Assembly: GCF_003334815.1 (NCBI RefSeq)
Contig: NZ_QOWO01000065.1
Source: Escherichia coli
GTDB taxonomy: Bacteria; Pseudomonadota; Gammaproteobacteria; Enterobacterales; Enterobacteriaceae
Strand: one strand, 5' to 3'
DNA length: 8,395 bases
Below, piece by piece: positions 78 to 250 of this stretch (positions within the stretch are counted from its first letter, which is position 1; each line of letters opens with the position of its first letter). The position numbers were made by a program, and so were the translations under genes. The notes under the pieces were generated by a model. The model saw nothing but the letters and a program-made list of their open reading frames with translations, had not been told where the DNA came from and ran no database searches.

Positions 78-229
78 CTGCGCTGAAATTTCTTTTTTTC
101 ATTGGAGCACCTGTGTTGTTCTGAGGTGAGCATATCACCTCTGTTCAGGTGGCCAGGTTCGGTGCACCACTACACTGTGAGCGAGAGCTAGGTAAAATTT
201 TTATGTTAATAAAATGGATCTGAGTTAAA

Positions 230-250
230 GCCACCTGCGATGCAGGTGGC
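230..250 (-). terminator. Candidate intrinsic terminator hairpin downstream of tpsA
   Basis: Perfect inverted repeat GCCACCTGC-GAT-GCAGGTGGC (9-bp stem, 3-nt loop), 46 nt downstream of the tpsA stop codon (TAA at 299..297 on the minus strand). On the minus strand it is followed by CTTTAACTCAGATCCATTTTATT, a weak U tract, so it may act more as an RNA-stabilising hairpin than a strong terminator. Confidence 0.4.

Follow-up and report, generated by a model that had tools for sequence, protein, structure and literature searches.

Fold-back inhibition of read-through transposase transcripts operates in the insertion sequences (IS) IS10 and IS50. Transcripts from the promoter at the junction of the IS911 circle start near position 21 of the left inverted repeat (IRL). 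IS911 carries 36-bp inverted repeats (IRs), the inner part of which is covered by the footprint of OrfAB[1-149] (PMC2909936), and according to the citing passage in PMC7986276 it is known to target IR-like sequences. In IS2 an extended -10 promoter, PIRL, adjoins the IRL and OrfA binds beside it (PMC3299598), while in IS200 a stem-loop in the 5'UTR sequesters the Shine-Dalgarno sequence of the transposase gene (PMC4513863).

The DNA analysed here, called the window throughout, is a stretch of 8,395 nt from plasmid pJNE25-005_2 of Escherichia coli JNE25-005. An earlier note had described a cluster of three related CACCT/AGGTG palindromes in it, lying between the end of an IS3-family element and tpsA. 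Paired arms of this type were located at 108-112/124-128, 136-140/147-151 and 232-236/244-248. The two weaker inverted repeats reported at about 108..128 and 136..151 were thus found where expected, and the strong hairpin reported at 230..250 proved to be a perfect 10-bp stem (229-238/242-251) with a loop of 3 nt. Six of the 19 CACCT sites present on both strands of the 8395-bp window fall inside 141 nt (108-248). Shuffled sequences contained on average 12.5 such sites per window, which corresponds to about 0.2 in this interval; with six present, the clustering is real and beyond chance. The three palindromes are nevertheless not related to one another as had been supposed, two of them being part of an IS911 leader and the third part of the tpsBA locus. 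With good confidence, the whole is best explained as the juxtaposition of two ordinary features which are unrelated, the relic of an IS911 left end and the stem-loop of the tpsBA operon. Both the relic and the operon-end stem-loop are instances of well-known kinds.

Origin of the segments between the IS3-family element and tpsA

Three pieces of different origin meet in the interval 100-250. The RefSeq record carries no annotation between the IS3-family transposase gene and tpsA. The following features were assigned:

1-77, minus strand: left end of an intact IS3-family element; its IR tip TGAACCGCCCC ends at 77 and the orfA ATG is at 23-21
78-174, minus strand: first 97 bp of IS911, comprising the IRL, the leader and orfA codons 1-8 (MKKRNFSA), from alignment to intact copies
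139-174, minus strand: IS911 IRL of 36 bp, TGTAGTGGTGCACCGAACCTGGCCACCTGAACAGAG, from comparison with the IRL and the right inverted repeat (IRR) of an intact 1250-bp IS911 (locus L003)
175-228, no strand: native AT-rich DNA from the hairpin to the IS911 tip, partly alignable with the IS-free locus L006
229-251, minus strand: perfect GC-rich stem-loop of 10 bp, AGCCACCUGC-AUC-GCAGGUGGCU, 45 nt 3' of the tpsA stop codon
297-1538, minus strand: tpsA, encoding a small two-partner-secretion exoprotein; TAA at 299-297, ORF of 413 aa, 409 aa from the RefSeq start

The element at 1-77 is very common; RefSeq labels it only as 'IS3 family transposase' and notes an AL1L frameshift pseudoknot. We take it to be IS629/IS3411-like. 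The earlier note had treated the DNA beyond it as a spacer between this one IS end and tpsA, and so overlooked a second IS: since 78-174 is the left end of IS911, the interval is not a plain spacer.

The identity of 78-174 as IS911 was established by direct alignment. This segment matches thousands of E. coli sites annotated as IS911/ISEc52 with 90-95% identity, and homology to intact copies stops exactly at 174, which is the IS911 tip. Read on the minus strand from 174 to 78, it consists of the 36-bp IRL (TGTAGTGG...TGGCCACCTGAACAGAG), a 36-nt leader and the codons ATG AAA AAA AGA AAT TTC AGC GCA. Codon 8 of orfA is followed directly by the tip of the second IS (1-77). The relic IRL matches the IRR in two blocks, the tip TGNAGTGG and the inner conserved block TGGCCACC (155-148) which is common to IRL and IRR and is the part bound by OrfAB, and the terminal 5'-TG is present. 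Compared to canonical IS911, the relic is identical over IS positions 23-97 (leader and first eight orfA codons), whereas in the outer IRL (positions 1-22) it shows the 6-7 substitutions that mark a decayed remnant resident at the site. Unlike a complete IS911, it is only 97 bp long and was ended at orfA codon 8 by the second IS. It is a dead, non-functional fragment and not an element. The idea that the repeats might be a decayed small structured element therefore fits 78-174 in part; the structure is not free-standing, being the truncated left end of IS911. The alternative proposal that they are remains of the original target region holds for 175-296, which is native DNA 3' of tpsA.

The same junction of the IS3-family element with IS911, after orfA codon 8, is found in two other E. 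coli plasmids, NZ_CP122638.1 from ETEC4085 and pJMF1_4, and in each of them the homology to the window ends at the IS911 tip (174). This nested-IS scar is a marker common to otherwise different plasmids. Close metagenomic relatives of the tpsA locus (L318, L008 and L009) carry at the same site a decayed, 140-bp IS911-like remnant (L318:4343-4482; L008:4269-4408) which is 84% identical to IS911. The remnant shares with the relic an unusual outer IRL (TGTAGTGGTGCACCGAACC), its ATG is lost and no second IS is present. The relic in the window is chimeric: IS positions 1-22 correspond to the resident remnant, and positions 42-97 to canonical IS911 as found in the two plasmids. This composition suggests recombination between a resident remnant and an IS-disrupted canonical IS911 of another replicon, and homologous recombination through IS911 would then have placed the IS3-family element beside tpsBA. 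The relic would record a recombination by which the rare tpsBA pair was joined to an IS629-type::IS911 junction that is present also on a plasmid encoding heat-labile toxin (LT). The main value of these assignments is for annotation, 97 bp of IS911 relic having been recognized in a region left blank by RefSeq, and they have no bearing on any long-standing open question.

Two further observations were made on the plasmids sharing the junction. In NZ_CP122638.1 it lies approximately 0.8 kb from eltAB, the LT genes, while in pJMF1_4, a plasmid of wildebeest E. coli, it adjoins istB of ISEc10.

The genes tpsA and then tpsB are both on the minus strand, and the pair lies within 297-3326. Since full-length relatives of TpsA have 408-430 aa, tpsA is not truncated. 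The DNA of this small tpsA/tpsB pair matched nothing in PLSDB, and the sole match in 5,426 complete E. coli genomes was the source plasmid itself; other tpsA loci therefore had to be found through protein. The nearest relatives of the two genes are on short metagenome or Logan contigs. The pair is rare. Members of the 408-418-aa TpsA family were also observed in Klebsiella quasipneumoniae and Salmonella. In related loci tpsBA is flanked by genes with the Pfam Dispersin domain (PF28204; L318:199-549 and 6237-7005; L008:204-566). A candidate for such a gene upstream of tpsB in the window, the ORF at 3586-3942, was rejected, as it encodes a fragment of the type VI secretion (T6SS) sheath protein VipB (Pfam E = 1.5e-9); the DNA upstream of tpsB consists of T6SS sheath (VipB) fragments, as annotated. 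Positions 175-1600 are 99.9% identical to the RefSeq plasmid record and positions 60-320 are 100% identical, from which it follows that one or two bases within tpsA are not the same in the window as in the record.

The stem-loop downstream of tpsA

The region of the strong hairpin folds with -29.4 kcal/mol (z = -4.6), none of 200 shuffled sequences folding as well, and forms a stem of 10-11 bp. The earlier note had taken this hairpin to be the 3'-end stem-loop of tpsA, and proposed alignment with loci lacking the IS as a check. The alignment bore this out. Two IS-free loci, L006 (91% amino acid identity) and L007 (87%), have the hairpin at an equal distance past the tpsA stop codon, and no IS911 sequence was found in either. 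The strong hairpin is a feature of the tpsBA locus and does not depend on an IS. Its 21-nt core is 95-100% identical to L006 and L007, compared with 82-85% over the final 60 nt of tpsA and 53-76% in the flanking DNA, and the sole change in the core is at a loop position. In the homologous loci the A-U pair that closes the stem is replaced by G-C, which is compensatory, and the stem of L007 extends to 16 pairs.

The hairpin shares several properties with intrinsic terminators, namely a perfect GC-rich stem, a short loop, a location just past the last gene of the operon and a compensatory change; the copy in the window differs from them in having UUUAAC in place of a run of U residues. The orthologue in L007 passed a terminator scan on the tpsA strand (16 pairs, tail TCTGGTTTGG). 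The same scan found no terminator at the hairpin in the window, which has no U-rich tract after the stem; the failure is due to the tail UUUAACUC (UUUAAC after the stem), and for this reason the efficiency of termination in the window is doubtful. The more distant small-tpsA loci of Klebsiella and Salmonella have GC-rich stem-loops that are unrelated to this one and located 17-35 nt past the stop codon.

The palindrome was also searched for elsewhere. The pattern GCCACCTGC-NNN-GCAGGTGGC gave 79 matches in 100,044 GTDB species genomes, essentially one per genome and distributed over many phyla. None of these matches was beside a tps homologue, and 41 of them had flanking A/T runs resembling those of bidirectional terminators. 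Such scattered single matches indicate a recurrent, independently arising stem of the terminator type and not a mobile or repeated element.

Based on these comparisons, 229-251 is a probable weak intrinsic terminator and/or stabilizer of the 3' end of the tpsBA mRNA. A rather unlikely alternative is that the hairpin does not terminate transcription at all, serving instead as a barrier to 3' exonucleases (mRNA stabilizer) or, as DNA, as a palindrome bound by a regulator of tpsBA. The U-tract is indeed poor in both the window and L006, and the stem is more conserved than the coding sequence. On the other hand, structural selection would be expected to leave just such a strictly conserved stem and compensatory closing pair, the tail of the L007 orthologue is terminator-like, and more than half of the identical palindromes in other genomes (the 41 of 79 above) have the A/T-run flanks typical of terminators. 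A stabilizing role may coexist with termination at the putative terminator.

A second, AT-rich and imperfect stem-loop (CUGAUAAUUGUAGAU...AUAAUAUAUCAG) was observed on the minus strand at 253-296, between the tpsA stop codon and the strong hairpin; parts of it are conserved in both L006 and L007.

Fold of the IS911-group leader and its possible role

The two weaker palindromes are made up of four arms of the IS911 leader, numbered here in the direction of transcription of orfA:

146-151, minus strand: segment 1, CACCUG, within the IR core GGCCACCUG (154-146); an arm of the palindrome at 136-151
123-141, minus strand: segments 2 and 3, forming a hairpin of GAGGUGA (141-135), the loop UAUGC and UCACCUC (129-123), in both the minimum free energy (MFE) and the centroid folds
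108-113, minus strand: segment 4, CAGGUG, with the orfA Shine-Dalgarno sequence AGGUG (112-108); an arm of the palindrome at 108-128

The transposase-binding IR core GGCCACCTG is among these four arms, and AGGUG sits 5 nt ahead of the orfA ATG (102-100). The 97-nt stretch with both weak palindromes has an unexceptional fold (z = -1.35). The MFE structure of the relic leader is nested, the hairpin of segments 2 and 3 lying inside a helix in which CACCUG of segment 1 pairs with CAGGUG of segment 4. The weak repeats had originally been paired side by side (1 with 2, and 3 with 4).

The two folds were compared using related elements. In 80 close IS911 copies from viral contigs the leader was invariant, and these copies were therefore uninformative for covariation. 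Relatives with 54-71% OrfA identity were gathered from plasmids, viral contigs and metagenomes, canonical IS911 being deliberately left out of the pattern scan of the metagenomes. Alignment to a covariance model, which was used because plain MAFFT mis-registered the hairpins with longer loops, resulted in 52 distinct IS911-group leaders. In these, 91.8% of the cells pair in the nested fold (28-44% with partners slid by 1-3 columns) and 90.4% in the side-by-side fold (27-47% when slid), percentages which are lower bounds since some alignment rows were still mis-registered, and which come from an alignment that was fitted to the model structure and is biased in its favour. Side-by-side pairing is equally often possible because segment 1 resembles segment 3 in sequence, and segment 2 resembles segment 4.

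Covariation separated the two. Changes on both sides of a pair were found in 23 cells of the nested fold, against a shuffle mean of 6.5, and none of 500 shuffles gave as high a count; the side-by-side fold had such changes in 0 cells, indistinguishable from its shuffle mean of 0. The lower three pairs between segments 2 and 3 all change on both sides, the variants being GAGGUG/CACCUC, GAGUG/CACUC, GCUGC/GCAGC and GCGUG/CACGC, and side-by-side pairing fails precisely in the lineages where these two segments co-vary. The helix of segments 1 and 4 is invariant in the 52 leaders except for a single change of G-C to G-U. Covariation speaks neither for nor against this helix, as segment 1 was fixed by the search pattern and segment 4 is the Shine-Dalgarno sequence. 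Several lineages lengthen the complementarity between segments 1 and 4, in differing directions. In one metagenomic member of the group (L264:5742-5794) the leader from segment 1 to segment 4 forms a single perfect hairpin of 19 bp, CACCUGAUAUGAGGUGAUA/UAUCACCUCAUAUCAGGUG, and is matched on both strands by the covariance model. Thus the side-by-side pairing of the weak repeats showed zero covariation, and the conserved fold of IS911-group leaders is most likely the nested one. What is mildly new is a covariation-supported leader hairpin in the IS911 group which overlaps a predicted extended -10 element as well as the IR core.

The -10 element was predicted from 40 IS911-group leaders, in which TA...T were the sole invariant internal positions and TG one base 5' was at least 90% conserved. 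The predicted extended -10 element, TGnTAnnnT, corresponds to TGATATGCT (137-129, minus strand) in segment 2 and the loop. As with PIRL of IS2, TGn-TAnnnT lies directly inside the IRL; unlike PIRL, the IS911-group motif is a prediction from invariance in the 40 leaders and not a mapped promoter. A simple two-hexamer promoter scan did not flag this predicted pIRL, which scored 8/12. A C/A-rich tract (AACAACAC) was observed immediately 5' of the orfA Shine-Dalgarno sequence.

Folding of RNAs with different 5' ends points to a role for the leader in intact elements. The predicted probability that AGGUG is unpaired was 0.01-0.08 in RNAs bearing segment 1 (read-through RNA, and RNAs from the IRL tip or from position 21) and 0.45 in RNA from IS position 53. 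The hairpin of segments 2 and 3 would bring segment 1 onto segment 4, so that the orfA Shine-Dalgarno sequence would be paired in any transcript bearing segment 1, including those reading through from neighbouring genes. The element's own weak promoter would start transcription about 7 nt downstream of the -10 element, at about IS position 53 (about position 122 of the window) and past segment 3, and the native mRNA, lacking segments 1-3, would have a free Shine-Dalgarno sequence. The leader would in this way give fold-back protection of transposase translation against outside transcription. Its likely role in intact elements is accordingly to hide the Shine-Dalgarno sequence in transcripts which enter from outside. 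In the window, where orfA breaks off at codon 8, any such masking is without effect. Transcripts from the circle junction, beginning at about position 21, would carry segment 1 and so be masked as well, which fits poorly with the transposase-boosting role of the junction promoter.

As in IS200, IS10 and IS50, an anti-Shine-Dalgarno sequence near the IS end is predicted to pair with that of the transposase gene, a likeness drawn from sequence, covariation of the inner hairpin and folding. IS911 would differ from these systems in that its anti-Shine-Dalgarno sequence is the transposase-binding IR core itself and in that the bridge is a covarying inner hairpin which carries the -10 element. A literature search, with papers on IS911 promoters outside its scope, found no experiment on masking by the IS911 leader. 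We tentatively propose that the IS911-group leader may be an undescribed conserved regulatory RNA module, in which the IR core doubles as anti-Shine-Dalgarno sequence and the hairpin houses an extended -10 element. If so, a single 55-nt stretch would encode transposase binding, a promoter and insulation from outside transcription, the leader might also tune expression from the circle-junction promoter, and IS911 would be one more example of an IS in which the synthesis of transposase is sheltered from transcription of neighbouring DNA. A leader structure over the IR core and predicted promoter of IS911, a model transposon, would be cheap to test.

The leader repeats could instead act at the level of DNA, as protein-binding palindromes forming an operator over the promoter for OrfA/OrfAB or a host factor, and this was considered improbable. 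Segment 1 does lie within the footprinted, transposase-binding part of the IR, the repeat of segments 2 and 3 overlaps the predicted -10 element, and OrfA of IS2 binds beside PIRL. However, the arms change while staying complementary (GAGGTG/CACCTC, GAGTG/CACTC, GCTGC/GCAGC and GCGTG/CACGC), as expected of a folded strand and not of a sequence-specific operator, and both spacing and loop length vary. The suggestion in the earlier note of an array of protein-binding sites was accurate to the extent that the arm GGCCACC is a known transposase-binding IR core; no array is present.

The 8-mer shared by the leader and the stem-loop

In addition to the CACCT/AGGTG arms, an exact 8-mer, CAGGTGGC, occurs at both 146-153 and 243-250. 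The hairpin arm is GCCACCTG in the window and GGCCACCTG in L006 and L007, and GGCCACCTG is identical to IS911 IRL positions 20-28 at 9/9 positions. The sharing of GCCACCTG is best read as coincidence.

Described targeted insertions of IS911 abut the IR-like sequence. It was considered very improbable that IS911 had been drawn to this site by the tpsA hairpin, which carries the OrfAB-binding IR core in both orientations: although the ancestral arms seen in L006 and L007 match the IRL perfectly over these nine positions, the IS911 tip is just 54 bp from the hairpin and insertion beside IR-like sequences is documented (work cited in PMC7986276, known here through that citing passage), the geometry is not an abutting one, with about 35 bp between the virtual IR tip and the real tip, terminator stems in many phyla have independently acquired this palindrome, and the match was noticed after the fact. 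In view of the IR-like targeting by IS911, 72 independent IS911 insertions were also examined for enrichment in the 300 nt flanking them on the outside. GGCCACC was observed twice (1.8 expected) and GCCACCTG was not observed (0.6 expected), so that attraction of IS911 by the IR-like hairpin arm was rejected for lack of flank enrichment in these 72 insertions.

That the three palindromes are copies of one REP- or MITE-like structured element, or a decayed array, can be practically dismissed in spite of their common CACCT/AGGTG core and the exact 8-mer, given that two of them are invariant parts of IS911, the third occurs in loci that never had the IS, the strong palindrome does not form a multi-copy family, its 79 matches in GTDB genomes being single copies in scattered species, neither PLSDB nor the 5,426 E. 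coli genomes contained a further match to the tpsA region, and Rfam gave no match. The Rfam scan had been among the checks proposed at the outset and gave nothing near a gathering score; with permissive thresholds over positions 1-1000 of the window, the best hit was isrD (E = 0.74), with 18.5 bits where the gathering score is 37, which is at the level of chance.

One more inverted repeat was observed across the junction. It is 14 nt long and 79% complementary, with TTTACCTCTTTCTC at 28-41 and GAGAGCTAGGTAAA at 183-196, and is probably due to chance, since one arm lies in the leader of the IS3-family element and the other in native DNA.
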